Positions 4,052 through 29,261 of a stretch of DNA of 64,000 nucleotides are shown here, piece by piece. A program made the position numbers and the translations under genes. Position 1 is the first letter of the stretch; every line of letters starts with the position of its first letter. Under the pieces are notes generated by a model that saw only the letters and a program-made list of their open reading frames with translations, was not told the origin of the DNA and searched no databases. The stretch is from an uncultured delta proteobacterium (GTDB lineage Bacteria > Myxococcota_A > Polyangia > Polyangiales > Polyangiaceae). Where the stretch lies: NCBI GenBank assembly GCA_963782055.1, contig CAWAIF010000002.1, forward strand, positions 192,001 through 256,000, written 5' to 3'.

Positions 4052-4117
4052 GCGAAACCTTTCTACCACAGCGGCCGCGGGCGCGCCGCGGCTGTCGAAG
4101 GCGCGGCGCGCCGGCCC

Positions 4118-4621: not shown

Positions 4622-4720
4622 GGGTTCCTCGCTTGGGCCCGACGGGTGACGGGCCGTTCGTGGTCCCTTCGGCCCCGTGTTTGGGGAGGTTTCGCGAAAA
4701 AGCGGTATTGTGGAGGCCTC

Positions 4721-9147: not shown

Positions 9148-10065
9148 ATGGCGGCCGAGGCGCACAAGCGATTCCTCATCGTCACGGGCAAGGGCGGCGT
9201 CGGCAAGACGACTGTGTGCGCGGCGCACGCGCTCGCCCTCGCGCAGCAGGGCAAGCGCGTGCTCATCGCCATGTGCAACGCCAAGGAGCGCCTCTCCGCC
9301 ATGCTGGGGAGCGACCTCATCGGGACCGAGGTGATCCAGGCGGCGCCCAACGTGTGGGCGGTGAACATGACGCCGGACGTCGCGCTCGAGGAGTACGGGA
9401 TGCTCGCCCTCAAGTCGAAGACGGTCTACTCCCTGCTCTTCGACAACCGGTACGTGCGGGTCTTCTTCCGGGCGGTGCCCGGCATCCACGAGTGGTCGAT
9501 GCTCGGCAAGGCGTGGTGGCACGCCACCGAGAAGCTGCCCGACGGCCGCGACCGCTTCGACGTGGTGATCCTGGACGCGCCGGCGACGGGCCACGGGCTG
9601 GACATGCTCCGCGTGCCGAAGGTGATCGTGGAGGTGGTGCCGCCGGGGCTTTTGCGCCGCGACGCCGACGCCGCGTGGGCGATGTTCCGCGATCCGGAGC
9701 AGACCGGGGTGGTCCTGGTCACCCTCCCGGAGGAGATGCCGACCACCGAGACGGTGGAGCTCGCGGCGGCGCTCACCGGCGAGCTGGGGATGACGATCGA
9801 CAAGGTGGTGGTCAACTGCGTGCTGCCGCCGCTCTTCTCGCGGGAGGAGCGCGCGACGCTCGAGGGGCTGGCGGAGGTGGAGCCGGTGGACGCCGGGGCC
9901 TCGGCGCTCGTCGCGGCCAGGCTCCGGGCGGTGCGGGAGCACGTGCAGGCGGCCTCGCTCGCCCGGCTGGCGCTGCAGTTGCCGGTGCGCACGGCGTTCC
10001 TGCCGCTCCTCTTCCAGGACGCGGCCACCCCGCAGGCCATCCGGGAGCTCGCGAAGCGGCTCTAG
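9148..10065 (+). CDS. ArsA/GET3-like ATPase (single domain)
   Basis: GKGGVGKTT deviant Walker A, PGIHE, DAPATGH switch II, PEEMP. Confidence 0.88.
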   Translation: MAAEAHKRFLIVTGKGGVGKTTVCAAHALALAQQGKRVLIAMCNAKERLSAMLGSDLIGTEVIQAAPNVWAVNMTPDVALEEYGMLALKSKTVYSLLFDNRYVRVFFRAVPGIHEWSMLGKAWWHATEKLPDGRDRFDVVILDAPATGHGLDMLRVPKVIVEVVPPGLLRRDADAAWAMFRDPEQTGVVLVTLPEEMPTTETVELAAALTGELGMTIDKVVVNCVLPPLFSREERATLEGLAEVEPVDAGASALVAARLRAVREHVQAASLARLALQLPVRTAFLPLLFQDAATPQAIRELAKRL

Positions 10066-14201: not shown

Positions 14202-14218
14202 GGGTATGCTGGTCCCAC

Positions 14219-14722
14219 ATGGGGACACTGCGCGCTCCGGGGGTGATGATGGTGACGCTGGCGCTCGCCGCGTGTCAAGACGCGTCGCGCTTCTCCACCG
14301 GGACCGACCACTACGAGGGCGTCGTCGTCGCCGGCAGCTTCGTGCGCGCGGGCATCGACGAGGGCACCCGCATGTGCATGACCTTCGACGCCAACCACAT
14401 CCAGGACGCACCGGGGACGCTCACCACGTCCGACGGCCGCTTCAAGAACTCGCCGCTCCGGCCGATGCCGCAGATCTGGCACGACCCGCTCTCCACGCTG
14501 TCGTTCGGCGAGGGGCGCTCGCAGAACATGATGTACGTCGCGGCGCCGGACTCCGCGGTGGATCCGCAGGGGGACGTGACGGTCGTCGTGTCGCTCATGG
14601 AGTCGGGGAGCGTGGAGGTCCGCCTGATGCGCGGCGCGCCCGCGCCGCCGGGCGGGACGTCACCGCCGCCGCTCTTCGCGGTGTTTCCGCTGGACATGAC
14701 GCCCGGCGAGTGTCCGTTCTAG
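14219..14722 (+). CDS. lipoprotein of unknown function
   Basis: LALAA-C lipobox; follows the TPR/HEAT gene after 17 bp. Confidence 0.75.
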   Translation: MGTLRAPGVMMVTLALAACQDASRFSTGTDHYEGVVVAGSFVRAGIDEGTRMCMTFDANHIQDAPGTLTTSDGRFKNSPLRPMPQIWHDPLSTLSFGEGRSQNMMYVAAPDSAVDPQGDVTVVVSLMESGSVEVRLMRGAPAPPGGTSPPPLFAVFPLDMTPGECPF

Positions 14723-14808: not shown

Positions 14809-15252
14809 CTACCCCGTCCCGCCACCAGCCCGCGCCACGGAGGCGTTGAGGATGGCGGTGCGCAAGTCGTCCAGATCGAAGGGCTTCCAGAACACCGCCG
14901 CCGCGCCGAGCCGCGCCGCGAGCGTGCGCACCGAGCTGTCACGCTGCGCGGTGATCAGCACGACCGGCACGTTCCACCTGGAGCGACGCAGCGTGCTCAG
15001 CACGCCCAGCCCGGAGAAGCCGGGCATCAGCACGTCGGTGACGACCACGTCCGGCCGCCTCAGCGGATGATCGAAGGCGTCGCTCAGCAGCTCCAGCAGC
15101 TCCGCGCCGTCCTTCGCCTCGACGACCTCGTAGCCGTCCGATCGCAGGCCCTCGCCGATGAGGTTGCGCATGTCCTCGTCGTCCTCGGCGAGGAAGATGG
15201 TGGTCGGCCGGCGCGGCGCCGGATCGCGGCCGCGGGTTAGCGGGTACTTCAT
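14809..15252 (-). CDS. single-domain response regulator
   Basis: IFLAEDD, VVVTDVLMPGFSG, ITA, KPF receiver motifs. Confidence 0.9.
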   Translation of the reverse strand: MKYPLTRGRDPAPRRPTTIFLAEDDEDMRNLIGEGLRSDGYEVVEAKDGAELLELLSDAFDHPLRRPDVVVTDVLMPGFSGLGVLSTLRRSRWNVPVVLITAQRDSSVRTLAARLGAAAVFWKPFDLDDLRTAILNASVARAGGGTG

Positions 15253-15264
15253 GCTCGACGTTCA

Positions 15265-15280
15265 TGCAGGGGGCGTGCCG
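15265..15280 (-). promoter_or_regulatory. putative sigma54 promoter of the divergent receiver gene
   Basis: Minus strand CGGCACG-CCCC-CTGCA with GG and GC at canonical -24/-12 spacing. Confidence 0.65.
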
Positions 15281-15321
15281 CGCGGCGTCCGCGCGTGGGC
15301 TCAACACGAGCATTCGAGCGA

Positions 15322-15336
15322 GTGACTTTTTGCTAC
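15322..15336 (-). promoter_or_regulatory. putative enhancer (activator-binding) box 1
   Basis: Minus strand GTAGC-AAAAA-GTCAC, 41 bp upstream of the sigma54 motif; related boxes at 16765 and 25279. Confidence 0.55.
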
Positions 15337-15365
15337 ACGTATCGAGATAGCGTGCTACCCCAGAA

Positions 15366-16754
15366 GTGATGATGCGCAGGGTCCTCATCATCGATGACGA
15401 CGAGAGTCTGTGCGAGCTGCTCGCCAGCGGCCTGGCCTCGCGCGGGTTCGACGCGTCCTTCCGGACCGCGCCGTCGGCGGCTCTCGATGCGCTCGCCGCC
15501 GACCACTACGACGCCGTCGTCACCGACCTGCGGATGCGCGAGATGAGCGGCATCGAGCTCTGCGATCGCGTCCTGCTCACCCACCCAGACGTGCCGGTGG
15601 TCCTCATCACGGCCCACGGGGACGTCGACGCCGCGGTGGCCGCGCTCCGCGTCCGCGCCTTCGACTTCCTCTCCAAACCCGTGGACGTGGAGCTGCTCGC
15701 CTCCGTGCTCGCGCGCGCCACCAGCCGCCCCCCGGCGCACCAGGCGCGGCGGCGCTCCCGCCGCAACAAGGGGGCTGACCCGGCCGACGGGCTCATCGGC
15801 GAGAGTGCGCCGATGCAGGCGCTCCGCGCCCTGATGGATCGCGTGGCTCGGGTGGACACCTCGGTGCTCATCGGCGGCGAGACGGGCACGGGCAAGGAGC
15901 TGGTCGCCCGGGGCCTCCACGCGCTGAGCGCGCGCAGCGACGGTCCCTTCGTCGCCATCAACTGCGCGGCCCTGCCGGAGAGCCTGCTCGAGGCGGAGCT
16001 GTTCGGCTACGCCAAGGGCGCCTTCACCGACGCGCGGACGGACCGCTCCGGCCTGTTCGAGCGGGCGCGAGGCGGCACCTTGCTGCTGGACGAGATCGGC
16101 GAGATGCAGCTCGGCCTGCAGCCCAAGCTCCTGCGCGTGCTGCAGGAGCGGGTCGTTCGCCCCGTGGGCAGCGACCGCGAGATCCCCACCGACGTGCGCG
16201 TCATCGCGTCCACCAACCGGGATCTGCAGACCGCCGTCGCGGCGAAGCAGTTCCGCGAGGACCTGTTCTACCGCATCGACGTCATCGAGATCCGCGTCCC
16301 GCCGCTGCGCGAGCGCGGATGCGACGCACTGCTGCTCGCCGCGCACTTCGTCCGGGAGTTCTCCCGCGGGACCGGCAAGTCCATCGAAGGCCTCACGCCC
16401 GGCGCGAGCGAGAAGATCGCCTCGTACACGTGGCCCGGGAACGTCCGGGAGCTGCGCAACTGCATCGAGCGGGCCGTCGCCCTCACCACGGCCGACCGCA
16501 TCGGCCTGGACGACTTCCCCGATCGGGTGCGGCGCGTGCCCTCGCTCCCCGAGACCTCCGAGCTCAGCGAGCTCCTCCCGCTGGTAGAGGTGGAGCACCG
16601 GTACATCCAGCGTGTGCTCGACGCGGCGCACGGCAACAAGAGCCTCGCCGCGCGGATCCTCGGGGTGGACCGCCGCACGCTCTATCGCAGGGAGGAGCAC
16701 CGGCACCTCACCAAGGCGGACGAGCCGGTGGACCTGACGCGCCCCCGGAAATGA
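15366..16754 (+). CDS. NtrC-family sigma54-dependent response regulator (REC-AAA+-Fis HTH)
   Basis: REC (IIDDD, TDLRM, SKP); [47 protein letters not shown]; Fis-type HTH ([18 protein letters not shown]). Confidence 0.95.
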
Positions 16755-16764
16755 TTTCGGACGT

Positions 16765-16779
16765 GTGGCGCTTTTGCAC
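16765..16779 (+). promoter_or_regulatory. putative enhancer box 2
   Basis: GTGGC-GCTTT-TGCAC, 45 bp upstream of the sigma54 motif at 16825; the weakest match of the three. Confidence 0.45.
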
Positions 16780-16824
16780 GCAGGTCTCGCCATCCGCGGG
16801 CCGCAAGCTGGCGGAAAGGTGAGA

Positions 16825-16840
16825 GGGCATGAGGGTTGCA
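16825..16840 (+). promoter_or_regulatory. putative sigma54 promoter of the kinase-gvp operon
   Basis: GGGCATG-AGGG-TTGCA with exact -24/-12 spacing, 13 bp before ATG 16854. Confidence 0.72.
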
Positions 16841-16853
16841 GCCCCGTGGCCGA

Positions 16854-18851
16854 ATGCCCATCCTCGCGCAGCGGTCCGGCACGCGCGTTCTCGTCGTGGC
16901 AAGCGATCCCGCCAAGGCCGACCTCCTTCGCCGCTGCGTGAGAGACGGCAGCGGGGGAACGTTCGAGGCCTGGCAGGTCGACACGACCGCGGGAACCGCC
17001 GAGGCGGCCCAGCAGGCGCGCGCCCACGTGCTGCTGCTGGACCCGGCGAGTGACCGGACCGCCCTCGCGACTGTCCGCGCGAGCGTTCCGGAGCTGCCCA
17101 TCGTGGTGCTCGTCGCGCCCCGCGACTTCGCCTCCAGCGTGCGGTCGCTGCGGACCGACGCCGACGACGTGCTCTTCGAGTGGGAGCTGGAGCCGCACCT
17201 CTTGGTGTGGCGCCTCCGCCTGGCTATCGAGCGTCACGAATCGGAGCGCAAGCTGACCCAGGCTCGCGACCTCGCGGAGAACGCCAACCGTCACAAGTCG
17301 GAGTTCGTCTCGCAGGTGAGCCACGACATCCGCACGCCGATGAACACGGTGCTGGGGATGGCAGAGCTCCTCGGCGAGACCCACCTGACCAAGAAGCAGC
17401 AGCAGTACGTCCAGACGCTGCGGCGCGCCGGCGATCACCTCCTCGCCCTCCTGGACGACGTGCTCGACCTCGCCCGGATCGAGGCGGGACAGATGGAGAT
17501 CGAGGCGACGAGCTTCCGGCTGGGCGAGGTGCTGGAGACGGCGCTCGACCTCGTCCGGGTGCAGGCGACGCGCAAGGGGCTGGCGCTGGAGGTCGACGTC
17601 TCGCCCGACATCCCCGACGCCTTCCGCGGCGATCCGCGCCGGCTGCGGCAGATCCTGGTAAACCTCCTCGCGAACGCGGTGAAGTTCACCGAGCGCGGGT
17701 ATGTGCGCCTCGCGGTGACCGCCGACGGCGGGACGCCCGGCGCCACGGCCCTCCACTTCAGCGTGCAGGACACCGGCATCGGCATCCCCGCCGAGAAGGC
17801 GGACGACATCTTCACGAGCTTCGTGCAGGGAGGAAGGAGCTTCGAGAAGCGCTACGGCGGCGTCGGGCTGGGCCTCGACATCGCGCGTCGCCTCGCGGAG
17901 CTGATGGGAGGCCGCATCTGGGTCGAGAGCACCGGCGGGGGCTCGACGTTCCACGTCAGCCTCGCGCTGCCCACCGAGAGGGGGAGGCCGCGACCCTCAT
18001 TCCCGGACGCCGCCGAGCAGGAGACGGCCCTCTCCGGGCCGGGCGGTCGCCGCCTGAAGGTGCTCCTGGTGGACGACTCGGAGGACAACCGGATGCTGAT
18101 CGCAGCGTACCTGGCCCCCGCCAACGTGGCGCTGGACTACGTGAGCGACGGACCGGAGGCGGTGCGGCGCGTGGAGACCACCGCCTACGACATCGTCCTG
18201 ATGGACCTGCAGCTGCCCACGATGAACGGCTTCGCCGCGACACGTGAGCTCCACGCCGCGGAGCGAGCGCTCGGCCGGCCGCGCACGCCCGTGATCGCGC
18301 TGAGCGCGCACGCGCTTGCCGACACCGTCCTGCGCGCGCAAGAGGCGGGCTGCGCGATGCACCTGGCGAAGCCGATCCGCAAGCGAACGCTGATCGCAGC
18401 GCTCGCTCGGGTCGCCCACGCCATCACCGCCGACCCGGCCGAGGACGTGCCAGTACGCCGCGTGCCCGACGACGCCCTGCGCCTCTTCGGCCGGTTCCTG
18501 CAGAACCGGAGGCGCGATCTCACCGACATCGAGAAGGCGCTCACGAGCGGCGACTTCGACGCGGTGCGGACCCTGGGGCACAACATGCAAGGCACCTGCG
18601 CGGCCTACGGCGTCCCGGAGCTGGGTGAGCTCGGCACGCGGCTGGAGGCGGCGGCCGACCGGCACGACACGCGAGACCTGCGGCGCATGACGGGCGAGCT
18701 CGCCGCGTGCATCGAGCGCGTGACCGCCCAGCACGAGGCCGGGCGCATCGAGGCGTCTCCGCGTCGGACGCGGTCCGGGCTTCGACCGTCCCACCCCGGC
18801 ACGAAGGACGCGGCGCCACCGCACGGCCGCAGAAGGAACGGCGCATCATGA
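16854..18851 (+). CDS. hybrid histidine kinase (degenerate REC - HisKA - HATPase - REC - Hpt)
   Basis: SHDIRTPMN H-box, NLLANAVKFT, DTGIGI, GVGLGL; REC LLVDD…LMDLQLP…KP; Hpt LGHNMQG. ATG 16854 preferred because TTG 16836 lies inside the promoter motif. Confidence 0.92.
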   Translation: MPILAQRSGTRVLVVASDPAKADLLRRCVRDGSGGTFEAWQVDTTAGTAEAAQQARAHVLLLDPASDRTALATVRASVPELPIVVLVAPRDFASSVRSLRTDADDVLFEWELEPHLLVWRLRLAIERHESERKLTQARDLAENANRHKSEFVSQVSHDIRTPMNTVLGMAELLGETHLTKKQQQYVQTLRRAGDHLLALLDDVLDLARIEAGQMEIEATSFRLGEVLETALDLVRVQATRKGLALEVDVSPDIPDAFRGDPRRLRQILVNLLANAVKFTERGYVRLAVTADGGTPGATALHFSVQDTGIGIPAEKADDIFTSFVQGGRSFEKRYGGVGLGLDIARRLAELMGGRIWVESTGGGSTFHVSLALPTERGRPRPSFPDAAEQETALSGPGGRRLKVLLVDDSEDNRMLIAAYLAPANVALDYVSDGPEAVRRVETTAYDIVLMDLQLPTMNGFAATRELHAAERALGRPRTPVIALSAHALADTVLRAQEAGCAMHLAKPIRKRTLIAALARVAHAITADPAEDVPVRRVPDDALRLFGRFLQNRRRDLTDIEKALTSGDFDAVRTLGHNMQGTCAAYGVPELGELGTRLEAAADRHDTRDLRRMTGELAACIERVTAQHEAGRIEASPRRTRSGLRPSHPGTKDAAPPHGRRRNGAS

Positions 18852-19231
18852 GCATGACGGTGCGCTCCTCCGATCGCAACGGCGGCGCCAGCCTGGTCGA
18901 TGTCCTCGACCGTGTCCTCGACAAGGGCCTCGTCGTCGCCGGCGACATTCGCGTCGCCCTGGCGGACGTGGAGCTGTTGACCATCCGCATCCGGCTGATG
19001 ATCTGCTCCATCGACAAGGCGCAGCAGGTGGGCCTGGACTGGTGGCGCCACGATCCGCACTTCGCGCCCGCTGGCAACAAGCTGCTCGGCGGCGACGCCG
19101 CGCTCCGGAAGCAGGTCGCCGCCCTCCAGCGACAGATCGCCAAGCTGGAGAAGGCCGCGACGTCCACCCGCCGCACCCGCTCATCGTCACCGAAGACATC
19201 GAAGAGAAAGAAGACGCGCCATGCCGATTGA
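18848..19231 (+). CDS. gvpJ: gas vesicle protein GvpJ
   Basis: [35 protein letters not shown]…[13 protein letters not shown]…DP plus coiled-coil tail, as in Bacillus-type GvpJ; ATGA overlap with the kinase. Confidence 0.85.
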
Positions 19232-19538
19232 ACGCAGCTCCGGCGGAACCAACCTGATCGACGTGCTGGACCGCGTCCTCGACAAGGGCATCGTGATCGA
19301 TGCCTGGCTGCGCGTACAGCTCGTGGGCATCGATCTGCTGACCGTGGAGGCCCGCGTCGTGGTCGCTTCGATCGACACGTACCTGAAGTACTCCGAGGCC
19401 GTCGGCGGGGCGGGCGCCGCCGCGCGGCCCACGCTTCCCGCCGCCCAGGTGCCGGAGTCCCTGCCGGCGCCGAAGCCGAAGCCGCGGACGCGTGCTCGGG
19501 CGAAGACCACCACGAAGACGAGGGCGCGCAGGACGTGA
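19221..19538 (+). CDS. gvpA: gas vesicle shell protein GvpA with basic C-terminal extension
   Basis: [52 protein letters not shown], the canonical GvpA core. Confidence 0.95.
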
Positions 19539-21682
19539 GCAGCCCCGCGGTCGTCGCCTCCGCCACCAGGAACGGCGCGCCCCCCACGACTCATCGGGGC
19601 GAGGCCAGCGGCCGCATGCTGCTCTTGCAGTCGCTGCTCGCGGCGGAGACGGTGACCGAGGCGGCGCGTCGCGTCGTCGAGTACCTCCACACACACGTCG
19701 GCGCGAGGCGGGTGGTCTACCTCGGGACCCACGACGCCGATGCCCGCCTGCAGGGGCTCGCCTCACGCGGCGTGGACGAAGCGCACGCGCTGGCGCTGGA
19801 GGTCGACCTGGACGTCGGCACTCACCCGCTGCTGCGCACGCTCTCGCCGCGGAGTCCCACTCCGGTCGAGATCCCCGACCTCGCGCGGCTCTTTCCGGGT
19901 GGTCGGCTGATGGTGACGCCGGTGCCGCTTCCCCTGACGCGGGTGGGGGAGCCCCTCGCGCTCCTGCTCACCGAGCCGCGCGCCGCGCTGGAGGAGGAGC
20001 TCGGCTGGGTGGCCTGCGTGCTGGGGCCGGAGCTGGCGCGCGCTCGCCGGCACGAGGATCTGAGCCGCGCCTACGCCGGAGCCCAGCGCGACGTGGCCCT
20101 GATGCGGGGGGTCCTCGATGCGGTGCCCGAGCCGGTGCTGCTTGCCGACGGCGACAGCAACGTGCTGCTCGCCAACTCTGACGCCGCGCTCTACTTCGCC
20201 TCGCCGGAGGAGGGGAGCAGCGAGGGGAGGCGGCGCGCGCTCGCGCTCAACCGGATGCTCCTCTCCGCCGTGCTCGCCAGCACCCGCAGCGCGGGGACGC
20301 AGATCCGGGAGGTGGCCGTCGTCGACCCGAGCGACGGGTCCGACCGCCTCTTCGAGCTGATCGCCGCGCACACCTCCACCGTGGCCGGCGAGGGCACCGT
20401 CGCGGTGCTCCGTAACGTGTCCGATCTCCACTCCGCGATGCGCGAGATCACCGAGAACTACCGTCGCCTGCGCGTGGCCGAGGCCGACGTCCGCGCCGAG
20501 CGCGACAGGCTGGACCTGATCATCGACTCGGTGGCCGACCCGATCATCGTCACCGGCATGCGGGGTGTGCCGCTGCGGATGAACCGCCCGGCGGAGGGGC
20601 TCCTCACGGCGGACCCCGACGCCTCCCCCGCGCGCGCGCAGCGCGTGCGCACCAACGACGCGCGCCTCTCCTCGCACGTGTCCAACGTCTTCTTCACGCC
20701 GGAGCCGCGCGTGCGCGGCGACCTCGACCTGCTCGACCCCGCCGGCATGCGCGACCTGCCGATGGAGGCGGTGAGCCGCAAGCTGATGTCGGCGCACGGG
20801 GAGGTGGCGGCGGTGGTCACCATCCTGCACGACCGCACCGAGGCGGAGGAGAAGCAGCGGCTCAACGAGCAGCTCGAGCAGGCGACGGCGCAGCTGGAGA
20901 AGAAGGTGCAGGAGGCGACGATCGAGCTCGTGAAGCAGAACGAGCTCCTGCGCCGCCAGCACATCCAGCTCGAGCAGGCCTCGAGCCTGAAGAGCCAGTT
21001 CCTCGCGACGATGTCGCACGAGTTCCGCACGCCGCTGAACGCCATCCTCGGCTACACGAGCATGCTGCTCGACAACATTTACGGGGCCCCGCCGCCGCGG
21101 CAGATCCGCTGCCTCGAGCGCGTGGACTCCAACGCCCGGCACCTGCTGGCGATCATCAACGACATCCTGGACATCTCCCGCATCGAGGCGGGCAGCATGC
21201 CGATCCACAGGTCCACGTTCGATGTCGGGAAGCTCTTGACGGAGGTCCTCTCCGAGGTGCGCCCGCTCGTGGCGCGCGACCGCGTCAAGGTGGAGCTCGC
21301 CGTCTCGTCGCGCCTGCCACGCCTGCGGACCGACCGCGCCAAGGTGAAGCAGATCCTGGTCAACCTGCTCTCCAACGCCTTCAAGTTCACCGCGGCCGGG
21401 ACCGTCGCCATCTCCGCGCGCCTCTCACCGCGAGGTCGGTGGTTGCACGTCGCCGTCGCCGACACCGGCGTGGGCGTCGCGCCGGAGGACGCCGAGGTGA
21501 TCTTCCAGGACTTCCGGCAAGCGGACAACTCCACCACCCGGCGCTTCGGCGGCACCGGGCTCGGCCTCGCCATCTCCCGGCGCCTGGCGGAGGTCCTCGG
21601 CGGCCGCATCAAGCTGGTCAGCGAGCTCGGGCAGGGCTCCACCTTCACCCTGATCCTCCCCCGGCGGCGGAGGTCGTCGTGA
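19535..21682 (+). CDS. cytoplasmic PAS-domain sensor histidine kinase
   Basis: Two PAS-like starts ([23 protein letters not shown]); [31 protein letters not shown]; no TM segment seen; GTGA overlap with gvpA. Confidence 0.92.
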
Positions 21683-22116
21683 AACGAGCGGCAGCGAGCG
21701 GCACCTCCCGGCGGCGTCGGGGTCGGTGCGTGCTGGTGGTCGACGACTTCGACGACAACCGCGAGATGTACGCCGAGTACCTCCAGCAGGCGGGGTACCA
21801 CGTGATCCAGGCCGCCGACGGGAAGTCCGCCGTTCAGCTCGCCACCGAGGCGCGCCCGGACCTCGTCGTCATGGACCTCTCCCTCCCGGTGATGGACGGC
21901 TGGGAGGCGACGCGCCTGTTGAAGGCCGACCCACGCACTCGCCGCATTCCGGTCATCGCCCTGACGGGGCACGCGCTCGCGGGGCACTCGCAGGGGGCGC
22001 GGGACGCGGGGTGCGACGAGTTTCTCACCAAACCATGCCTGCCGCGCGCCCTGGTCGACGCGGTGGAGCGGATGCTCGCGCCTCGCGGACGTGGGCGGAA
22101 AGGAGCGTCAGCATGA
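21679..22116 (+). CDS. single-domain response regulator (DivK/CheY-like)
   Basis: VLVVDD, MDLSLPVMDG, ALT, TKP; overlaps both neighbours by 4 nt. Confidence 0.9.
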   Translation: MKRAAASGTSRRRRGRCVLVVDDFDDNREMYAEYLQQAGYHVIQAADGKSAVQLATEARPDLVVMDLSLPVMDGWEATRLLKADPRTRRIPVIALTGHALAGHSQGARDAGCDEFLTKPCLPRALVDAVERMLAPRGRGRKGASA

Positions 22117-22985
22117 GCAGGAGAACGGCGCGCACCCCGGAGAAGGCCAAGGCGGTGCTGCCCGTCCGTCCCAGGGCGGAGTCGTGGCCCGAGGAAGCGA
22201 CGACGGCGAAGCACCGCGTGCTAAAAGAGCGCGGCGAAGCGCGCGGGCGCTACGTGTACTGCGTCATCGGCTCGACCGGCCACAAGACCTTCGGTCCCAT
22301 CGGCGTCGGCGTGGAGCCGGCGGAGGTCCACACCGTGCGCTTCAAGGACATCGCCGCCGTCACGTCGGACACGCCCATCGAGGTCCACGAGCCGACACGC
22401 CACAACATCCTGGCCCACGAGCGCGTGAACGAGGCGGTCATGCGGGAGCACACCGTCATCCCCATGTCCTTCGGCACCGTCTTCAAGACCGACGACGATA
22501 TCCTGGAGCTGCTCCGCTCCGCGTACGACGCGTTCAAGGACGTGCTCGTCAAGATGGAGGACAAGCTGGAGTACGGCCTCAAGGTGCTCTGGGACCGCGA
22601 CCAGATCGTCCACGCGCTGGAGCTGGAGGACGAGGACATCCGGCGCCTGCGCGCCGAGATCCTCTCCCAGAACGGGTCGACGTACTTCGCGCGCATGCAG
22701 TACGGGCGGCTCGTCGAGGCGGCCCTCGAGACGCGGTGCGAGCGCTACGTCCGCGAGATCTTCGACGAGCTCCGGCCGGTCTCCATCGCCTCGCGCGTGA
22801 ACAAGCCCATCGGTGACAGGATGATCATGAACGCCGCGTTCCTGGTGAGCCGCGAGCGGGAGGCGAAGTTCGACGCCCGCGTCAAGGCGCTCGGCGCCGC
22901 CTACGACAAGCTGACCTTCCGCTACACGGGACCCTGGCCGCCCTACAACTTCGTCAACATCCGGCTGAAGCTGGAGAAGGCGTGA
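22113..22985 (+). CDS. gvpF: gas vesicle protein GvpF (GvpL/F family)
   Basis: YVYCVI, AHERVNE, VIPMSFGTVF, NAAFLV, TGPWPPYNF; located just before gvpG. Confidence 0.88.
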   Translation: MSRRTARTPEKAKAVLPVRPRAESWPEEATTAKHRVLKERGEARGRYVYCVIGSTGHKTFGPIGVGVEPAEVHTVRFKDIAAVTSDTPIEVHEPTRHNILAHERVNEAVMREHTVIPMSFGTVFKTDDDILELLRSAYDAFKDVLVKMEDKLEYGLKVLWDRDQIVHALELEDEDIRRLRAEILSQNGSTYFARMQYGRLVEAALETRCERYVREIFDELRPVSIASRVNKPIGDRMIMNAAFLVSREREAKFDARVKALGAAYDKLTFRYTGPWPPYNFVNIRLKLEKA

Positions 22986-23320
22986 GCATGCTCGTCATCG
23001 ACAGGATGCTGGCCTCCGGTCTGGGGTTCGTGATGCGCCGCATCGCCGAGGCCGCCGACGCTGCGTCCGACCCGACCACCGCCTTGCACGCGGGGTTGCT
23101 GGACGCGCAGGCGAGCCTGGAGCGCAACGAGATCACCGAGGCGGAGTACGAAGCCATCGAGGCGGATCTGCTGGCCGAGCTGCACGAGCGACGGCGAAGC
23201 GAGCGGCCGGCCGTGCTCTCCCACGTGACCGTGGACGTGATCGAGACCCCGCCGGAAGTCGGCGAGAAAGGAGCGCACCATGCCCCGCCGAAGCGCAAGG
23301 CCCGCAAGCGCCGCGTCTGA
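22982..23320 (+). CDS. gvpG: gas vesicle protein GvpG
   Basis: GLGFVMRRIAEAAD…LERNEITEAEYEAIEADLLAEL pattern; position after gvpF. Confidence 0.8.
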   Translation: MSMLVIDRMLASGLGFVMRRIAEAADAASDPTTALHAGLLDAQASLERNEITEAEYEAIEADLLAELHERRRSERPAVLSHVTVDVIETPPEVGEKGAHHAPPKRKARKRRV

Positions 23321-24065
23321 CGCGGACGTCGCGACCTACCTCTACTGCGTGGTGGAGGCCCCGCGCATCGACCTCGCGGGCGTCCCGCGCGGCCTGCCCG
23401 GCGCAGGAAAGCCCCGCGCGGAGCCGCTGAAGCCCGGACGGTGGATGATCGTGTGCGACGCGCCGCTCGCCCGCTACGGGCCGGAGGCCATCGAGCGCGC
23501 CACGAGCGAGCTCCGGTGGGTGGCGACCGCGGCGGTCAAGCACTCCGAGGTGGTCTCCTTCTTCGCGCGCGATCTCCCCGTCGTGCCGATGAAGATGTTC
23601 ACACTCTTCTCCGACGACCGGCGCGCCACGCGGGCGCTGCTACGCAAGGGACAATCCATCGACCGTACCTTGAAGCACATTCGCGGCTGCGCCGAATGGG
23701 GCGTCCACATCCTCCCGGCGCCGCGTCGTGCTGCCGCGCGTCGCGCCCCGGCGCCGCGCAGCGGCCGCGCCTTCCTCGTTGCGAAGCGGGAGAAGCTCGC
23801 CGGGGCGCGTGACGATCGCGCTCACCAGCGCGCCGAGGCCCTGCGCGCGCTGGGGGATCTGGAGTCGCTGTCGCGCGCCGCGCAGATGCGCGAGGCGCAG
23901 GCCGCGACGGGACCGGTGGTGGACGGCGTCCTGCTGGTGCCGAACGCGGCGAAGGCGCGGCTCGCCGCGCGCTGCGACCGATGGCGCGAGCAGCTCCAGA
24001 AGCGGGGCCTGTCCCTCCGCGTGACCGGTCCCTGGCCCTGCTACCACTTCGTGGGGGCACGATGA
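23280..24065 (+). CDS. gvpL: gas vesicle protein GvpL (GvpL/F family)
   Basis: YLYCVV, HSEVV, VVPMKMFTLF, EWGV, SGRAFL, TGPWPCYHF. Confidence 0.85.
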   Translation: MPRRSARPASAASDADVATYLYCVVEAPRIDLAGVPRGLPGAGKPRAEPLKPGRWMIVCDAPLARYGPEAIERATSELRWVATAAVKHSEVVSFFARDLPVVPMKMFTLFSDDRRATRALLRKGQSIDRTLKHIRGCAEWGVHILPAPRRAAARRAPAPRSGRAFLVAKREKLAGARDDRAHQRAEALRALGDLESLSRAAQMREAQAATGPVVDGVLLVPNAAKARLAARCDRWREQLQKRGLSLRVTGPWPCYHFVGAR

Positions 24066-24274
24066 GCCCGGCGCGTGCCGCGCCACGCCGGCGGAGCGCC
24101 GCGGACCTCTCGCTCGCCCGCCAGGGGACCCTCCTCGACCTGCTGGATCACGTCCTCGACAAGGGCGTCGTGCTGCAGGGCGATCTGGTGATCTCCGTCG
24201 CCGACGTCGAGCTGGTCTACGTTCGCCTCTCGGCGCTGCTGTGCGGGATGTCATCGCTGGCGAGGAGGCGCTGA
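24062..24274 (+). CDS. gvpS: gas vesicle protein GvpS (GvpA-like family)
   Basis: LLDLLDHVLDKGVVLQGDLVISVADVELVYVRL; ATGA overlap. Confidence 0.8.
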   Translation: MSPARAAPRRRSAADLSLARQGTLLDLLDHVLDKGVVLQGDLVISVADVELVYVRLSALLCGMSSLARRR

Positions 24275-24897
24275 TGCTGGCCCTGGTCGCGCTCCTCCGC
24301 GCCGACGACGCCGAGCTCGCGCGCGCCCTCGGGTTCGGCGCGACGGTCGTGCGCGCGGCGTGCGTGGTGCACCGCACGGTTCGCCGCCCCGACGGGCCGA
24401 CGGCCGCGGCGGCGATCCGTCACGACCGTGCCGTGCGGCGGCTCATGTCGCGGGCCACCGCGGTGCTGCCGATGCGCCTCGGCGTCACCGTGAAGGACGC
24501 CGGCGCTCTCCCGGCGCTCCTCGGCTCCCATGACGGCGCCGTCGCCGCGCGCCTGGCGGCGGTGGAGGGCCGCGTGCAGATGACCCTCCGCGTCTACCGG
24601 GGCCCCGGCGCCGCGAGGCGCGTCACCGGAGGTCGGGGGACCCGGTACCTGGCGCGTCGCGGCGCGGAGACCGCCTTCGTCGCGCGCGCGCGCCAGGAGC
24701 TCGGAGCTGCGGTCGCCGACGAGGTGATCGAGCACCACTCCATCGAGCCGCTGCTGGCGAGCGTGTATCACCTGGTGGACAGGGGGCGCGCCGCGGCGTA
24801 CCGCGCCGGTGTCCGCCGGGTCGCGCGCGCGCACCCGGAGGTGCGCGTGGCGGCCAGCGGTCCGTGGGCCCCGTACGCCTTCTGCGCCCTGGAGTGA
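24274..24897 (+). CDS. third GvpL/GvpF-family protein
   Basis: HDRAVRRL, VLPMRLG, GTRYL, YHLV, SGPWAPYAF; TGATG coupling with GAGGAGG SD. Confidence 0.82.
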   Translation: MLALVALLRADDAELARALGFGATVVRAACVVHRTVRRPDGPTAAAAIRHDRAVRRLMSRATAVLPMRLGVTVKDAGALPALLGSHDGAVAARLAAVEGRVQMTLRVYRGPGAARRVTGGRGTRYLARRGAETAFVARARQELGAAVADEVIEHHSIEPLLASVYHLVDRGRAAAYRAGVRRVARAHPEVRVAASGPWAPYAFCALE

Positions 24898-24900
24898 CCG

Positions 24901-25254
24901 ATGGCGGCCCGGCAATCCACCCTCGTTCGCAAGGCCCGCAGGCGCGAGATCGACGCGCTGCGACACGAGGTCACGCGCAAGAAACGCGGCCGGCTGCGCA
25001 TCGACGCCGACCCCGGCGACGTGGAGCGCTCGCTGGCGCGCCTGGTGCTCTCGCTGGTAGAGCTGCTCCGCGAGCTGATGGAGCGCGAGGCCATCCGCCG
25101 GCTGGACGGCGGCGATCTCACGCCCGACGAGATCGAGGCGGTGGGGACGGCGCTGATGCGTCTGGAGAAGGCCGTGCGCACCCTCGCCCGGCGGTTCGGC
25201 CTCAAGCCGGGCGATCTCAACCTGGACCTCGGGCCGCTCGGCCGCCTGCGCTGA
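24901..25254 (+). CDS. gvpK: gas vesicle protein GvpK
   Basis: LARLVLSLVELLRELMEREAIRR…LNLDLGPLGRL signature. Confidence 0.92.
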   Translation: MAARQSTLVRKARRREIDALRHEVTRKKRGRLRIDADPGDVERSLARLVLSLVELLRELMEREAIRRLDGGDLTPDEIEAVGTALMRLEKAVRTLARRFGLKPGDLNLDLGPLGRLR

Positions 25255-25278
25255 CCGTCGTGGCGTGCGCGCACCCGC

Positions 25279-25293
25279 GTAGCGGAATGTCAC
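25279..25293 (+). promoter_or_regulatory. putative enhancer box 3
   Basis: GTAGC-GGAAT-GTCAC, with half-sites identical to box 1, 40 bp upstream of the sigma54 motif. Confidence 0.55.
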
Positions 25294-25333
25294 GATCCCC
25301 GCCCGTCGTCGGACTATCCCGGTCCGTGTAGCG

Positions 25334-25349
25334 AGGCACATGCATTGCA
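25334..25349 (+). promoter_or_regulatory. putative sigma54 promoter of the globin-kinase gene
   Basis: AGGCACA-TGCA-TTGCA with exact -24/-12 spacing, 15 bp before ATG 25365. Confidence 0.72.
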
Positions 25350-25364
25350 GCGGTCTCTCCGTCC

Positions 25365-27665
25365 ATGGTCCCTGCCGAAGCGGGTGAAGGTGCCGCGTGG
25401 ACGCCGCCGTCGAGGATGGACGGCTTCGAGCTCGTCGAGCTGCTGGGCGAAGGCGGCATGGGCCGCGTCTACCTCGCGCGGGAGCGCTCGCTCGACAGGC
25501 TGGTGGCGATCAAGTTCATGACGGTCGCCCCGACCATGCCCGGCGCCCGCGCCCGCTTCCGGGCCGAGGCGCGCGCGCTCGCACGGCTGAATCACCCCAA
25601 CGTGGTCGGGGTCTATCGCTTCAACGAGGTGGAGGGCAGGCCGTACATCGCCTACGAGTACGTGCGCGGCAAGAGCCTGGACCGAATCGCCAAGCCGATC
25701 CGGTGGACGGCGAGCCTGGTCATCGCGGCGTCGGTCGCGCGGGGCCTCGCTGCCGTGCATCGCGCCGGCCTGCTGCACAGAGACATCAAGCCGGCCAACG
25801 TGATGGTGGCCGCGACGGGCGCGGTGAAGCTGGTCGACTTCGGCCTGGCGCGTCTCGCCGATGCGGAGGGGCGCTGGAGTCCCGACAGCGAGGAGTCTCC
25901 GGAGGCCGCGCTGGCGCTGTCCTTCGACGATCTGGTCGAGGCCGGGGCCCACGCCTCCGCCGTGGCCCGCGGGTCGGCCGTGTCGCGTGGCATGCGAACG
26001 GCCTCCAACCTCGCCGTCGGGACCCCGCGCTACTGGGCCCCGGAGCAGTGGCTGGGCGGGGAGGCCGACGCGAAGAGCGACGTCTACGCGCTGGGTCTGG
26101 TGATCTACGAGATGGTCACCGGGACGGCGCCGTTCGCCGATGTGGCCGGGGACGATCTGATGCACGCCGTGCTGGAGGTGGGTGTGCCTCGCGTCCAGCA
26201 CGACTCCGTCCCGGAGGCCTTCGGCGCGATCATCGACCGCTGCCTCCGGCGTGACCCGCGCGAGCGGTGGGACACCGCCACCGATCTCGCCCGCGCGCTC
26301 CTCCAGCTCCAGCGCGTCTTCGTGGCCGCGACGCCGGAGGCGCTCACCCGACCGTTGAACGACGAGGCCGCAATCGTCGCGGCGTCGTGGTCGCGCCTCC
26401 TGCCGTGGCGCGCGGCGCTGATCGCGCGCGTCTACCGCGAACTCTTCGCGGCGCACCCGGAAGTCCGCGCGCTCTTCCCCCTGGATCTCGCCGCGCAGCA
26501 GGCGAAGCTCACCCACGCCCTCGATCTCACGTTGCAGGGACTCCACGAGCCCGACGCCGTGGCGCCGATGCTCCGGGAGCTGGGCAGCCGTCACGTCGAC
26601 TACCACGTCGAGCCGCGCCACCTGGAGATGCTGGGCAAGGCATTGCTGGACGCCCTGCCCGTCTTCGACCGCAAGTGGGACGAGGCGACACGCCAGGCGT
26701 GGAAGCACGGCTACACCTTCATCGCCGCCACGATGTGCGCCGGGATGGCGAGTCACACCGAGCCAGTCGCCATTCCCCGCACGCCACCGCCCGCCGGCTC
26801 CCCGCATCCGGCGCCCCTCGCGGTGATGCCACCCGCGCAGTACGCCTCCGACGGCAACGTGGTCTATGCGGAGCTGGGAAAGGGACCGCCGGCGCTGGTC
26901 TTGTTGCCCGGTCGTGTCACGCACCTGGAGATGACCTGGTCGCACCCCGCGCCCGTCTGGCTCCTCGCCCAGCTCGCCGCGTTCTCCCGCGTCGTGCTCC
27001 TCGACCTGCGCGGCACCGGCATGGCCGATCGCATCCCGGACCCGACGGTGGAGGACGGCGTGCAGGACATTCTCTCCGTCATGGACGCCGCGCACATCGA
27101 CCGCGCGGTGCTCGTCGGCGCGGGCGACGCCGGGCCGATCGCCGTGTCGGCCGCCGCCGCGCACCCCGATCGAACCGCCGCGCTGGTGCTGGTCGGGTCG
27201 ACGCCGCGGCCCGCCTGGGCAGAAGACTTCCCCTTCGGGCGCACGAGGGCGGCGTTCGACGAGGCGTACAAGGAAGCCGCGGAGCACTGGGGGACGGCCT
27301 CCCACGTCGCGCGGGAGAACCCGGCGGCGGCGCGTGACAGGACCTTCTGCGAGTGGCTCGCCTCCTACCAGCGCATCGCCGCGGGCCGGCGCCGGGCGCT
27401 CGCGCTGCTGCGCGTCGCCGAGGAGCCCGACGTGCGCGCGCTGCTCCCGGCGGTGCAGGCGCCCACGCTGGTGCTTCACCGGGTCGGCGATCCGGTCTTC
27501 CCCGGGGCCGTCGGTCGCTTCATCGCCGAGCGCGTGCCGCACGGGCGGTACCTGGAGCTGCCCGGCAGCGACCACTGCATCTTCGCCGGTGACAGCGCCG
27601 AGCTCGCCCGCGCCATCGAGCGCTTCGTGGCCGGCCTCTCGGCCACGGCCCCCGCCGGATGCTGA
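25365..27665 (+). CDS. Ser/Thr kinase - globin - alpha/beta-hydrolase-fold fusion protein
   Basis: Kinase motifs GEGGMG, AIK, HRDIKPAN, DFG, APE; globin VAASW…VYRELFAAHPEVRALF…QQAKL…LGSRH…AW; hydrolase fold DLRGTGMAD, GAGDAG, PTLVLH, GSDH. Confidence 0.88.
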   Translation: MVPAEAGEGAAWTPPSRMDGFELVELLGEGGMGRVYLARERSLDRLVAIKFMTVAPTMPGARARFRAEARALARLNHPNVVGVYRFNEVEGRPYIAYEYVRGKSLDRIAKPIRWTASLVIAASVARGLAAVHRAGLLHRDIKPANVMVAATGAVKLVDFGLARLADAEGRWSPDSEESPEAALALSFDDLVEAGAHASAVARGSAVSRGMRTASNLAVGTPRYWAPEQWLGGEADAKSDVYALGLVIYEMVTGTAPFADVAGDDLMHAVLEVGVPRVQHDSVPEAFGAIIDRCLRRDPRERWDTATDLARALLQLQRVFVAATPEALTRPLNDEAAIVAASWSRLLPWRAALIARVYRELFAAHPEVRALFPLDLAAQQAKLTHALDLTLQGLHEPDAVAPMLRELGSRHVDYHVEPRHLEMLGKALLDALPVFDRKWDEATRQAWKHGYTFIAATMCAGMASHTEPVAIPRTPPPAGSPHPAPLAVMPPAQYASDGNVVYAELGKGPPALVLLPGRVTHLEMTWSHPAPVWLLAQLAAFSRVVLLDLRGTGMADRIPDPTVEDGVQDILSVMDAAHIDRAVLVGAGDAGPIAVSAAAAHPDRTAALVLVGSTPRPAWAEDFPFGRTRAAFDEAYKEAAEHWGTASHVARENPAAARDRTFCEWLASYQRIAAGRRRALALLRVAEEPDVRALLPAVQAPTLVLHRVGDPVFPGAVGRFIAERVPHGRYLELPGSDHCIFAGDSAELARAIERFVAGLSATAPAGC

Positions 27666-27714: not shown

Positions 27715-28122
27715 ATGTCTCGCCTCCGCTCGCCGCTCGCCGTCGTGCTCGTCGCATCGCTGCTTCTTCCCGTCGCCGCGCGCGCCGCGCCCCGCGTCCC
27801 GTACGTGGAGGGTACGCGAGTGCCGCCCGGCTACCACGTCACCTCACGCCCGCGCGTCGGGCTGGTGATCGTGGGGGGCATCCTGTGCCTCCTCTCTGCG
27901 CTGGGGGTAGGCGTCGGGGTGGACGGCGTCTCGCGCCGCGACGACACCGCCGAGGTAGCCGGGTTCGCCTTCGCCGGTCTCACCGCGGCGCCGGGGATTC
28001 CCCTGCTGATGGTGGGCCTGCTGAAGCCGAAGCACTACCTGGTCGCCGACCACGCGTGGCGCCTGCGCCTCGCCCCGGCGACCGCGGGTGTGCGGGGTGT
28101 GTCACTGACCTTGGAGTTCTAG
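27715..28122 (+). CDS. exported/membrane hypothetical protein
   Basis: Signal peptide (VAARA), two hydrophobic segments, C-terminal GVSLTLEF beta-strand-like end. Confidence 0.7.
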   Translation: MSRLRSPLAVVLVASLLLPVAARAAPRVPYVEGTRVPPGYHVTSRPRVGLVIVGGILCLLSALGVGVGVDGVSRRDDTAEVAGFAFAGLTAAPGIPLLMVGLLKPKHYLVADHAWRLRLAPATAGVRGVSLTLEF

Positions 28123-28180: not shown

Positions 28181-28543
28181 TCACCGGCGCGTGGTGTGGA
28201 GGCCGACGTGGTTTCCCTCCGTGTCGGCGACGATGGCGTACAGGCCCATCTCCCCGATGTCGGTCTTGGGAACGACGACCGAGCCGCCCGCGGTGGTCAC
28301 GCGGCCGAGGGCGGCGTCCAGCTCCGGCGCGTCGAGGTACACCACGCTCCCGGGCCCGGGAGCGCGACGCGGGTCGGCGACGAGCGCGCCGCTCACGTCG
28401 GCGTTGAGGCGCCGGGCGAAGATGGCGTGCGGGACGCCGGCGAAGTCCTCCCGCTTGAGGGACACGCCGAGGACCTTCTCGTAGAAGCGGGCGGCGCGGT
28501 CGATGTCGGCGACGGGGATCTCGAACCAGTTGATGACGCTCAT
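28181..28543 (-). CDS. VOC/glyoxalase-family protein
   Basis: MSVINWFEIPVADIDRAARFY…DTEGNHVGL; AGAAGGAG SD. Confidence 0.92.
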   Translation of the reverse strand: MSVINWFEIPVADIDRAARFYEKVLGVSLKREDFAGVPHAIFARRLNADVSGALVADPRRAPGPGSVVYLDAPELDAALGRVTTAGGSVVVPKTDIGEMGLYAIVADTEGNHVGLHTTRR

Positions 28544-28619
28544 GGTGGCTCCTTCTCCTGCGGACCGCGACGGCGGCCCGACGAGAGGCACCCTAGCCCC
28601 GGGCGTTGACAGCCTTCTG

Positions 28620-29261
28620 TCAGGTTTGTTTGGTCTCCACCACCGCGTGCTCGATGCGGTCGAAGCGCAGCGGCAGGGGCTCCCCGCTCTCGGCCTCGTG
28701 TCCGAGCAGCACGATCATCGTGCGCTCCATGGTGGCGCCGGCGAGGCGCACGCGCCGCCGCTCCAGCTCGCCGTGCGAGTTGCGGTAGCGCACGGCGAGG
28801 ACGCTGCCCTCGAACCACGCCGACTCCACCGCGCGACGCACCGCAGGAGGCGGCGCCAGCACCGGCACCCCCACGAACCGGAGCCTGTCCATGTGGCCGA
28901 GCAGCTCGCGCTGCGCGGACGTGCCGAGCGCCGCGCGCACCTTGTCGAGCGCGCGCTGCAGCGCCTCCGGGAACGGGAGCGATCGCATCTCCACCGCGTG
29001 CCGGACGAGGCTCGCCAGCACCGCCGCCTCGCGCGCGGTGAAGTTGACGGGCGGGAGCGCGTAGCTCTTGTCGAGCGCGTAGCCCCCGCCGCGTCCACGG
29101 TCCGCCTGCACGGGGAGCGCCGCGTCGCGCAGCGTGTCCAGGTCGCGGTAGATGGTGCGCACCGTGACCCCGAACCGCTCCGCGAGCATCTCGGCCGTGA
29201 CGCCGGTGCGCCGCCCGCGCAGGTACTCGGCGATGGCAAAGAGGCGCGCCTGTCGTCGCAC
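28620..29261 (-). CDS. YafY-like HTH + WYL transcriptional regulator
   Basis: LAERFGVTVRTIYRDLDTL, GRGGGY, LPPVNFT, Y…RRV…RFDRI. Confidence 0.88.
   Translation of the reverse strand: MRRQARLFAIAEYLRGRRTGVTAEMLAERFGVTVRTIYRDLDTLRDAALPVQADRGRGGGYALDKSYALPPVNFTAREAAVLASLVRHAVEMRSLPFPEALQRALDKVRAALGTSAQRELLGHMDRLRFVGVPVLAPPPAVRRAVESAWFEGSVLAVRYRNSHGELERRRVRLAGATMERTMIVLLGHEAESGEPLPLRFDRIEHAVVETKQT

Follow-up and report, generated by a model that had tools for sequence, protein, structure and literature searches.

A composite gas-vesicle locus in a Polyangiaceae genome: a widespread gvp cassette, a receiver/Hpt-kinase module and a globin kinase gene

Introduction

In Serratia sp. ATCC 39006, gvpA1 of the gas-vesicle (gvp) cluster has a sigma-54 site and needs GvrA, a protein of the NtrC family, as well as GvrB and GvrC, all encoded within the cluster (PMC4982088). 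Its expression is induced microaerophilically, at low oxygen (PMC6617781). This regulatory layout is said to apply to Proteobacteria in general; in Serratia, bicones grow into cylinders through GvpN, and the gvpN-less cluster of Streptomyces coelicolor is cryptic (all PMC4982088). The types of gvp cluster have been tabulated (PMC9501494), and two-domain ArsA proteins occur in gvp clusters, including acidobacterial cluster 6, which holds two L/F genes together with J, K and M (PMC2963123). Globin families have been defined (PMC3287990, PMC4081604, PMC6194562), with fusions to Ser/Thr kinases unmentioned in the parts of these papers that were available. Here, we compare with these systems a ~13-kb locus of an uncultured member of the Polyangiaceae, which lies at positions 14809-27665 of a 64,000-nucleotide stretch of DNA (GCA_963782055.1, contig CAWAIF010000002.1, positions 192,001 to 256,000, forward strand). 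The whole stretch is called the window, and coordinates are window positions unless another locus or genome is named.

The locus combines three separable units: a gvp cassette, a receiver/Hpt-kinase module and a globin kinase gene. The explanation that we favour, at a probability of roughly 0.6, is that three separately inherited units were joined, with a widespread gvp cassette placed under a resident sigma-54 module that would also drive the globin-kinase gene. The combination probably arose when a single lineage rewired a system of known kind.

Layout of the locus and comparison with described systems

The source genome (7.58 Mb, 72% GC, 97% complete; window on contig C2) carries all 14 genes that a first-pass annotation of the sequence had described, and their place, strand and domains were confirmed with Pfam and NCBIfam. 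The order is a receiver gene on the reverse strand, an NtrC-type activator gene, a hybrid histidine kinase gene with an Hpt domain (HK1), gvpJ, gvpA, a second histidine kinase gene (HK2), a receiver gene, gvpF, gvpG, gvpL, gvpS, a third F/L gene, gvpK and a kinase-globin-hydrolase gene. From HK1 to gvpK these form the overlapping chain already reported, with gaps ranging from -41 to +3 (in order -4, -11, -4, -4, -4, -4, -41, -4, -1 and +3). The activator gene and HK1 are 99 bp apart, and gvpK and the globin kinase gene 110 bp. The phospho-acceptor and catalytic residues of the signalling proteins are intact, the genome has one copy of rpoN, and an Rfam scan gave 0 matches. No empty insertion site for the locus was found in the sister genomes, and the flanking synteny is broken within the genus.

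By analogy, the locus should work like the GvrA-C control of Serratia 39006, yet it is no member of that type by layout. The two share an NtrC-family activator and further regulators within the cluster, a sigma-54 site before the gvpA operon (here recognised by sequence only), three GvpA-like and three GvpF/L-like genes, GvpG and GvpK. They differ in that the operon described here is without gvpN, C, V, H, W, Y and Z and does not match the two-operon layout of Serratia; it is a single overlapping chain with an Hpt hybrid kinase gene at its head, genes for a GAF-PAS-PAS kinase and for a receiver separate gvpA from gvpF, and the globin kinase gene follows downstream. The acidobacterial ArsA cluster (PMC2963123, cluster 6), in which ArsA occurs with L/F, J, K and M, belongs to the same cassette family, but ArsA is missing here, and neither a histidine kinase nor a kinase/receiver pair is mentioned in the available part of PMC2963123. 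Like gvpOAFG-JLSK of S. coelicolor (PMC9501494, PMC4982088), the locus is GvpN-less, comes from a non-planktonic lineage and is unproven in vesicle formation; unlike it, the locus has a canonical short GvpA, no GvpO match (the controls were blank) and its regulators inside the operon.

The first-pass annotation had suggested that the architecture was undescribed. Our literature search found no description of the cassette kinase or of the kinase-globin family, with subscription globin reviews, figures and supplements (including the cluster comparison of PMC4982088) outside the search, and such reviews may list chimeras of this kind. In-cluster sigma-54 control at low oxygen, on the other hand, has been published for Serratia (PMC4982088, PMC6617781).

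The gas-vesicle cassette

Eight gvp genes make up the structural part of the cassette:

18848..19231, + strand: gvpJ-type GvpA paralogue (PF00741); the start overlaps the HK1 stop (gap -4)
19221..19538, + strand: gvpA, canonical shell protein (NF006874 at 107 bits, cut-off 100; PDB 8gbs, E 6.5e-24, and 7r1c, E 7.6e-21)
22113..22985, + strand: gvpF (PF06386; 63-79% identity to 80 relatives)
22982..23320, + strand: gvpG (PF05120); followed by two-domain ArsA in most relatives, by none here
23280..24065, + strand: gvpL (PF06386)
24062..24274, + strand: gvpS/M-type GvpA paralogue (PF00741; NF046091 below cut-off)
24274..24897, + strand: third GvpF/L-family gene (PF06386)
24901..25254, + strand: gvpK (PF05121)

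The accessory set is thus represented by GvpJ/M/S, F/L, G and K. No other GvpA-family gene was found in the genome. The same holds for GvpN above the cut-off (best match 45 bits, cut-off 266.8), and GvpN was not found in four related cassette genomes. GvpO gave no match in five genomes, but the controls were also blank. For GvpC, no unassigned frame is left within the operon, a genome-wide profile search not having been made.

A scan of species genomes with GvpF returned at least 578 relatives, of which the best 80 were kept. These come mostly from Acidobacteriota, Rokubacteria/Methylomirabilota and Myxococcota, with some from Planctomycetota and Gemmatimonadota; the closest named relatives are Myxococcales and Labilithrix bins (77-79% identity). 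The conserved order is gvpJ-A-kinase-receiver-F-G-(ArsA)-L-S-L-K. Where enough upstream DNA was present, gvpA, HK2 and gvpF follow one another in 64/68 loci, and 63 of these 64 have the receiver between HK2 and gvpF. The four exceptions are two loci with HK2 in pieces and two that are rearranged. Among the 58 loci that span gvpF to gvpK, 47 have a two-domain ArsA between gvpG and gvpL and 11 are ArsA-less. The window's gvp cluster has no two-domain ArsA, and ArsA homologues elsewhere in the genome are partial matches only, at 28-34% identity. An ArsA-like gene 5 kb upstream (9148-10065, + strand) was rejected as a stand-in for the ATPase: it is single-domain, 28% identical to the gvp-type ArsA, and belongs to a genus-conserved block that is located elsewhere in relatives.

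Upstream of gvpJ, a strict sigma-70-like motif stands just before the start in 24/64 loci (0 on the reverse strand, 0.6 after shuffling), and a sigma-54 motif was found in 2/64, five further loci having been dropped for want of a start or of upstream DNA. On the second count, sigma-54 control was rejected as a general property of the cassette. In the window's gvp region no sigma-70 site was found, and an intergenic promoter is missing, as gvpJ overlaps the HK1 stop codon. The simplest reading of this overlap is that the cassette promoter was lost and that transcription comes from the HK1 promoter. The sigma-54-controlled gvp operon proposed from the sequence is reasonable for this copy, given the lack of room for an intergenic promoter, the conservation of the motif before HK1 within the genus, the intact activator and the rpoN gene of the genome; as a trait of the cassette it did not hold.

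Several other promoter and cluster arrangements were seen. In G617 (L135/L136), G663 (L137) and G838 (L139), the sigma-54 motif upstream of gvpJ faces a divergent gene, away from the cassette. A gene for tandem CBS domains is clustered with the cassette in 15/80 loci, and in those that were inspected it stands directly before gvpJ (L016 5902-6345 and similar loci). A second, Serratia-like type of gvp cluster occurs within the phylum (L106, L108, L109, L111-L113). Among other gvp loci of the phylum, 6/11 have a sigma-54 motif right before gvpA, and four of these six have an activator gene directly upstream.

The cassette kinase and its receiver

Two signalling genes belong to the cassette itself:

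19535..21682, + strand: cassette kinase HK2 (GAF-like, PAS, PAS, coiled coil, HisKA with His495, ATPase)
21679..22116, + strand: cassette single-domain receiver (Asp66; PF00072), without a DNA-binding domain

The structural model of HK2 gives the order GAF-like domain, PAS, PAS, coiled coil and kinase, at a mean predicted local distance difference test (pLDDT) score of 83.5. The PAS domains were as first annotated, and the N-terminal GAF-like domain had gone unnoticed. No membrane segment was found in HK2. The fold search returned generic multi-PAS kinases and phytochromes, and a plasmid search with HK2 gave generic PAS kinases only, among the matches listed. No haem or flavin signature was identified in 38 aligned HK2 sequences: ahead of the kinase core a single His is invariant, at the end of the second PAS domain, and each Cys is present in 19/38 at most.

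GvpK and the PAS region of HK2 mark the same 9/151 genomes of one Acidobacteriota class (the centre genome included). In the window's order, HK2 was found in 12/401 genomes, a count that includes the unpublished genome G668, which enters no other result. Pairs of HK2 and receiver without gvp genes lie at L140 (G673) 5982-8542, reversed, and at L141 (G048) 3439-5165, reversed; the HK2 of G048 is without the GAF-like part. Such gvp-less pairs could be either relics of cassette loss or pairs with a wider role.

The resident receiver, kinase and activator

Three genes precede the cassette:

14809..15252, - strand: stand-alone receiver (Asp73; PF00072), with 62-72% orthologues beside the Hpt kinase gene in four same-genus genomes without GvpK
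15369..16754, + strand: NtrC-type sigma-54 activator (PF00072, PF00158, PF02954; Asp53, Walker A/B, GAFTDA, Fis helix-turn-helix)
16854..18851, + strand: cytoplasmic hybrid histidine kinase HK1 (receiver-like N-terminus, His157, receiver Asp451, Hpt His576)

No sensor domain was found in HK1. Adjacent genes for the receiver (62-72% identity) and HK1 (56-59% over its kinase core) occur in 4/5 same-genus genomes that have no GvpK match, and in these four a second receiver gene stands at the position of the activator gene, with unrelated genes after HK1. GvpK itself was found in 0/6 same-genus genomes, 2/61 relatives and 14/401 genomes of the phylum, the window's genome being counted in the last two. 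Conversely, the Hpt and N-terminal parts of HK1 are matched in 0/80 related gvp loci. The divergent receiver is genus-resident and likely to be a phosphate sink or relay.

In a quick tree, the activator falls into a clade (Shimodaira-Hasegawa-like approximate likelihood-ratio test, SH-aLRT, 99) with its paralogue, one protein encoded near HK1 in G006, one in G347 and three encoded upstream of gvpJ in Myxococcota loci. In these three loci, two or three opposite-strand genes lie between the same-clade activator gene and gvpJ. A CBS gene follows the HK1 orthologue in G006.

Sigma-54 motifs and upstream boxes

The three sigma-54 motifs with related upstream boxes, on which the three units had been tied together, are all present, each in an intergenic gap:

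15265..15279, - strand: sigma-54 -24/-12 motif before the receiver gene; kept before the orthologue in 3/4 relatives
15322..15336, - strand: upstream box 1; its end is 42 bp upstream of the -24 GG, and it is also 33 bp upstream of the activator gene
16765..16779, + strand: upstream box 2; its end is 46 bp upstream of the -24 GG, and a similar box precedes the orthologous kinase gene in G006
16826..16840, + strand: sigma-54 motif and predicted kinase-gvp operon promoter; kept before the orthologue in 3/4 relatives
25260..25293, + strand: tandem upstream boxes (25260-25274, with one mismatch, and 25279-25293), ending 60 and 41 bp before the -24 GG
25335..25349, + strand: sigma-54 motif before the globin kinase gene; no orthologous site for comparison

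The pattern GGCAY-N6-TGCW has three copies in the 64-kb window, all in the locus, where each occupies a gap between genes and points at one of them; sigma-54-like sites of this form number 251 in the genome, and ~0.002 are expected per gap and strand. As the pattern was picked after the sequence had been read, the independent support lies in its conservation in relatives, where it is kept before the receiver orthologue in 3/4 and before the HK1 orthologue in 3/4 same-genus genomes (two of the latter three were identified by eye in the sequence).

The boxes have the 15-bp form GTRGC-N5-K[GTC]CAC and end 42, 46 and 41 bp upstream of the three GG dinucleotides. A perfect box lies within 150 bp of 4/251 sigma-54-like genome sites: the three local ones and one by the closest paralogue of the activator. 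In a null test on the best common 17-mer of random triples of sigma-54 sites, the observed score was reached in 12/400 triples, and in 8/5000 after removal of the 54/248 sites with repeated upstream sequence. Local co-regulation of the three units through common boxes is plausible on these patterns. A genome-wide regulon was also sought with a box matrix and rejected: beyond the three local sites and the paralogue site there were few scattered matches and no recognisable set of hypoxia genes, the downstream genes being unannotated. The paralogue is encoded at G000:C3:1232313-1236630, in a kinase-activator-receiver-stress-protein unit (receiver and stress protein named from a reading of the frames), which has a palindromic form of the box with a sigma-54 motif 85 bp away.

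The globin kinase

The last gene of the locus encodes a three-domain protein:

25365..27665, + strand: Hanks-type Ser/Thr kinase, F-family globin and LipJ-like alpha/beta pseudohydrolase (766 aa; K50, D140, D158; Y357, F371, Q378, proximal H410)

The fusion of kinase, globin and hydrolase was annotated correctly, and its parts can now be named more closely, the globin as flavohaemoglobin-type and the hydrolase as one without the nucleophile Ser. The kinase part has the catalytic Lys and the HRD, DFG and APE motifs on a PknB-like fold. The globin is an internal PF00042 domain, helical in the model, with 3wfw, 3s1i and 3ubc as its best PDB matches; no match to the protoglobin family was found, and the globin is not of the sensor type. 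In 13 aligned three-domain proteins the kinase residues are invariant, H410 and Y357 are each kept in 13/13, and F371 and Q378 each in 12/13. The Tyr/Gln distal pair and the proximal His occupy what we take to be positions B10, E7 and F8. From these residues, the globin probably binds haem, and we consider it an even question whether haem-bound gas regulates this family of bacterial Ser/Thr kinases. The nucleophile Ser of the hydrolase is kept in 2/13 relatives, and a Gly stands at this position here. The LipJ profile NF058673 matches at 151 bits (cut-off 800), over positions 8-288 of 449 only.

The family was missed by a word-indexed protein search and found by a full HMMER search, in which the globin region matched 4660 clusters. 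Among the best 150, 38 have a kinase domain and 20 of these also the hydrolase (query included). Most of 33 picked clusters have both the kinase and the globin domain (Pfam, E 1e-6). A longer relative, P0048, covers the LipJ-like cyclase half as well, and P0004-P0008, 1000-2500 residues long, each match the globin in 7 to 14 stretches.

Compared with F-family globins and fusions (3wfw globin-Roadblock/LC7, 3s1i, 3ubc; flavohaemoglobin NF009805), the protein has the same 3/3 globin, proximal His and Tyr/Gln distal pair, but its globin sits between a Hanks kinase and a pseudohydrolase and is without a reductase domain. The S-family globin-coupled sensors, with methyl-accepting chemotaxis protein (MCP), diguanylate cyclase, histidine kinase or STAS outputs (PMC3287990), are similar in that the state of the haem ligand would likely control a fused signalling domain; they differ in the globin family, in that the globin here is mid-chain, and in the Ser/Thr kinase output. 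The C-terminal domain matches the hydrolase half of the LipJ lipase/adenylate cyclase (NF058673), whose cyclase half is absent from the globin kinase.

The first-pass annotation had proposed a new conserved O2-responsive system, to be recognised by synteny of gvp and globin-kinase genes. This did not stand up. The globin is matched in 0/80 related gvp loci, including 0/50 with at least 2.5 kb after gvpK. Among 400 other genomes of the phylum, 13 have GvpK and 14 a globin match, with none in common (7 candidates scored per genome), and no gvp matches were found in the flanks of 8 kinase-globin loci. Of 10 cassette-bearing Myxococcota genomes (incomplete assemblies), seven leave the kinase-globin junction unmatched, and three have globin-level matches at no more than 33% identity with the kinase end uncovered. 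A metagenome scan gave four globin loci, all without gvp. Co-conservation with gvp was thus rejected for the globin kinase and for the Hpt kinase (each 0/80 loci), the latter, with its receiver, being gvp-less in 4/5 same-genus genomes.

At three of the other loci the kinase-globin gene is near activator genes: it overlaps a sigma-54-family activator gene in two and lies 4 kb from an FHA-activator gene in the third (L121 7272-12481, L096 6286-10011 and L120 4452-11193). This adjacency may be due to chance, as such genes abound in these genomes. In L096, a stand-alone globin gene adjoins the kinase-globin gene.

Proposed mechanism and alternative explanations

If the three units were joined as we favour, HK1 would autophosphorylate at His157, and the phosphate would pass via Asp451 and Hpt His576 to Asp53 of the activator, with the divergent receiver as a sink. 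The input of HK1 is a receiver-like domain, so the primary signal would come from another kinase. The phosphorylated activator would bind the boxes and open the three sigma-54 promoters, with positive feedback through HK1. From the HK1 promoter, transcription would read through the overlapping chain to gvpK, the cassette promoter having been lost at the HK1/gvpJ junction. GvpA, J and S, the three F/L proteins, G and K would then nucleate shells, which would probably stay small bicones because GvpN and ArsA are missing. HK2 would phosphorylate the cassette receiver, which has no DNA-binding domain and would therefore most likely act on proteins and not on promoters. The globin probably binds haem, and its O2/NO state would probably tune the fused kinase. 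The globin kinase is best read as a co-induced regulon member and not as a dedicated gas-vesicle controller; its globin is a probable output of the regulon, and an input role, which has no comparative support, is possible.

Several points weigh against this explanation. The box pattern was derived from the same three sites, and the null score was reached in 12/400 triples before repeats were removed. The boxes are only 41-46 bp from the -24 element; the usual enhancer distance is greater, and they may thus bind another factor. A tblastn search of the genome with the activator domain gave 47 matches. The best 80 loci of at least 578 are rich in related Acidobacteriota, and their counts are not independent events. 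Moreover, HK2 is not tied strictly to gvp: GvpF/L was unmatched in 3/5 HK2-bearing genomes tested in the order, and in two of these three the kinase-receiver pair is flanked by non-gvp genes on either side. The GC content at third codon positions (GC3) of the gvp genes, 0.86-0.96, is within the genome range (median 0.96, 5th percentile 0.84), and gvp may have been lost in the sister species instead of gained here.

The strongest of the alternatives is a dedicated gas-sensing circuit: on sensing O2 or NO, the globin kinase would phosphorylate the activator, a kinase or a Gvp protein, and the whole 13-kb unit would switch vesicle formation with the oxygen level. It has in its favour that the same motif and box precede all three units, that the haem-pocket and kinase residues are conserved, that no terminator was found between gvpK and the globin-kinase gene, that low oxygen induces gvpA1 in Serratia (PMC6617781), and that kinase-globin genes touch a sigma-54-family activator gene in 2/8 other loci. 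The lack of co-occurrence elsewhere (0/80 loci, no genome in common among 400; seven of the 10 incomplete cassette Myxococcota genomes unmatched and three with globin-level matches of at most 33%) counts against it, as do the receiver domain of the activator, where an FHA domain is absent, and the HK2 PAS domains, in which no haem or flavin signature was identified. We regard such a circuit as unlikely, and equally unlikely the corresponding claim that an O2/NO-switched globin kinase was recruited into the sigma-54 regulon of a GvpN- and ArsA-less gvp operon and controls it.

A little less probable is that the globin-kinase gene stands here by chance, with a sigma-54 promoter of its own that another activator reads, and that the boxes are generic for the activator subfamily. 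The palindromic box beside the closest paralogous activator elsewhere in the genome is consistent with this, as are the 182 kinase and 47 activator matches in the genome and the broken synteny around the locus in the genus. However, a perfect box is found at only 4/251 sigma-54-like sites, and the box of the globin-kinase gene is the nearest match to that of the receiver gene, with a spacing of 41 vs 42 bp.

Least probable is a cryptic or decaying gvp copy that, after the loss of ArsA and of its promoter and without GvpN, forms no gas-filled structure: GvpN was found neither here nor in four related cassette genomes, the ArsA homologues elsewhere in the genome are partial and 28-34% identical, GvpK is missing from 6/6 same-genus genomes and the gvpN-less S. 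coelicolor cluster is cryptic (PMC4982088), but all eight gvp frames are intact and coupled, GvpA is above its family cut-off and matches solved shells, and ArsA-less cassettes recur (11/58 loci).

Significance

The GvpN-less cassette, with its dedicated GAF-PAS-PAS kinase and a receiver without a DNA-binding domain, appears to be present in several hundred genomes of Acidobacteriota, Rokubacteria/Methylomirabilota, Planctomycetota and Myxococcota. It offers a handle on the old question of the role of gvp genes in non-planktonic bacteria and hints at protein-level control of assembly. The window's copy, naturally ArsA-less and with a predicted promoter of a different type, is a ready-made comparison. 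Similarly, the kinase-globin-pseudohydrolase family would, if haem ligands control it, feed O2/NO directly into Ser/Thr signalling in bacteria. The combination at the locus, as regulon rewiring in a single genome, has modest general weight unless the globin kinase acts on vesicle formation. If the globin kinase did control the operon, this would be a newly assembled gas-sensing loop acting on a gas-filled organelle in a myxobacterial lineage.

Flanking genes

Just beyond the locus, a WYL/HTH regulator gene is followed by a glyoxalase-family gene (28181-29261, - strand). Three flanking frames have no Pfam match, at 14206-14722 (+ strand), 27715-28122 (+ strand) and 29424-31052 (- strand). The last of these has relatives of 73-74% identity in two same-genus genomes.

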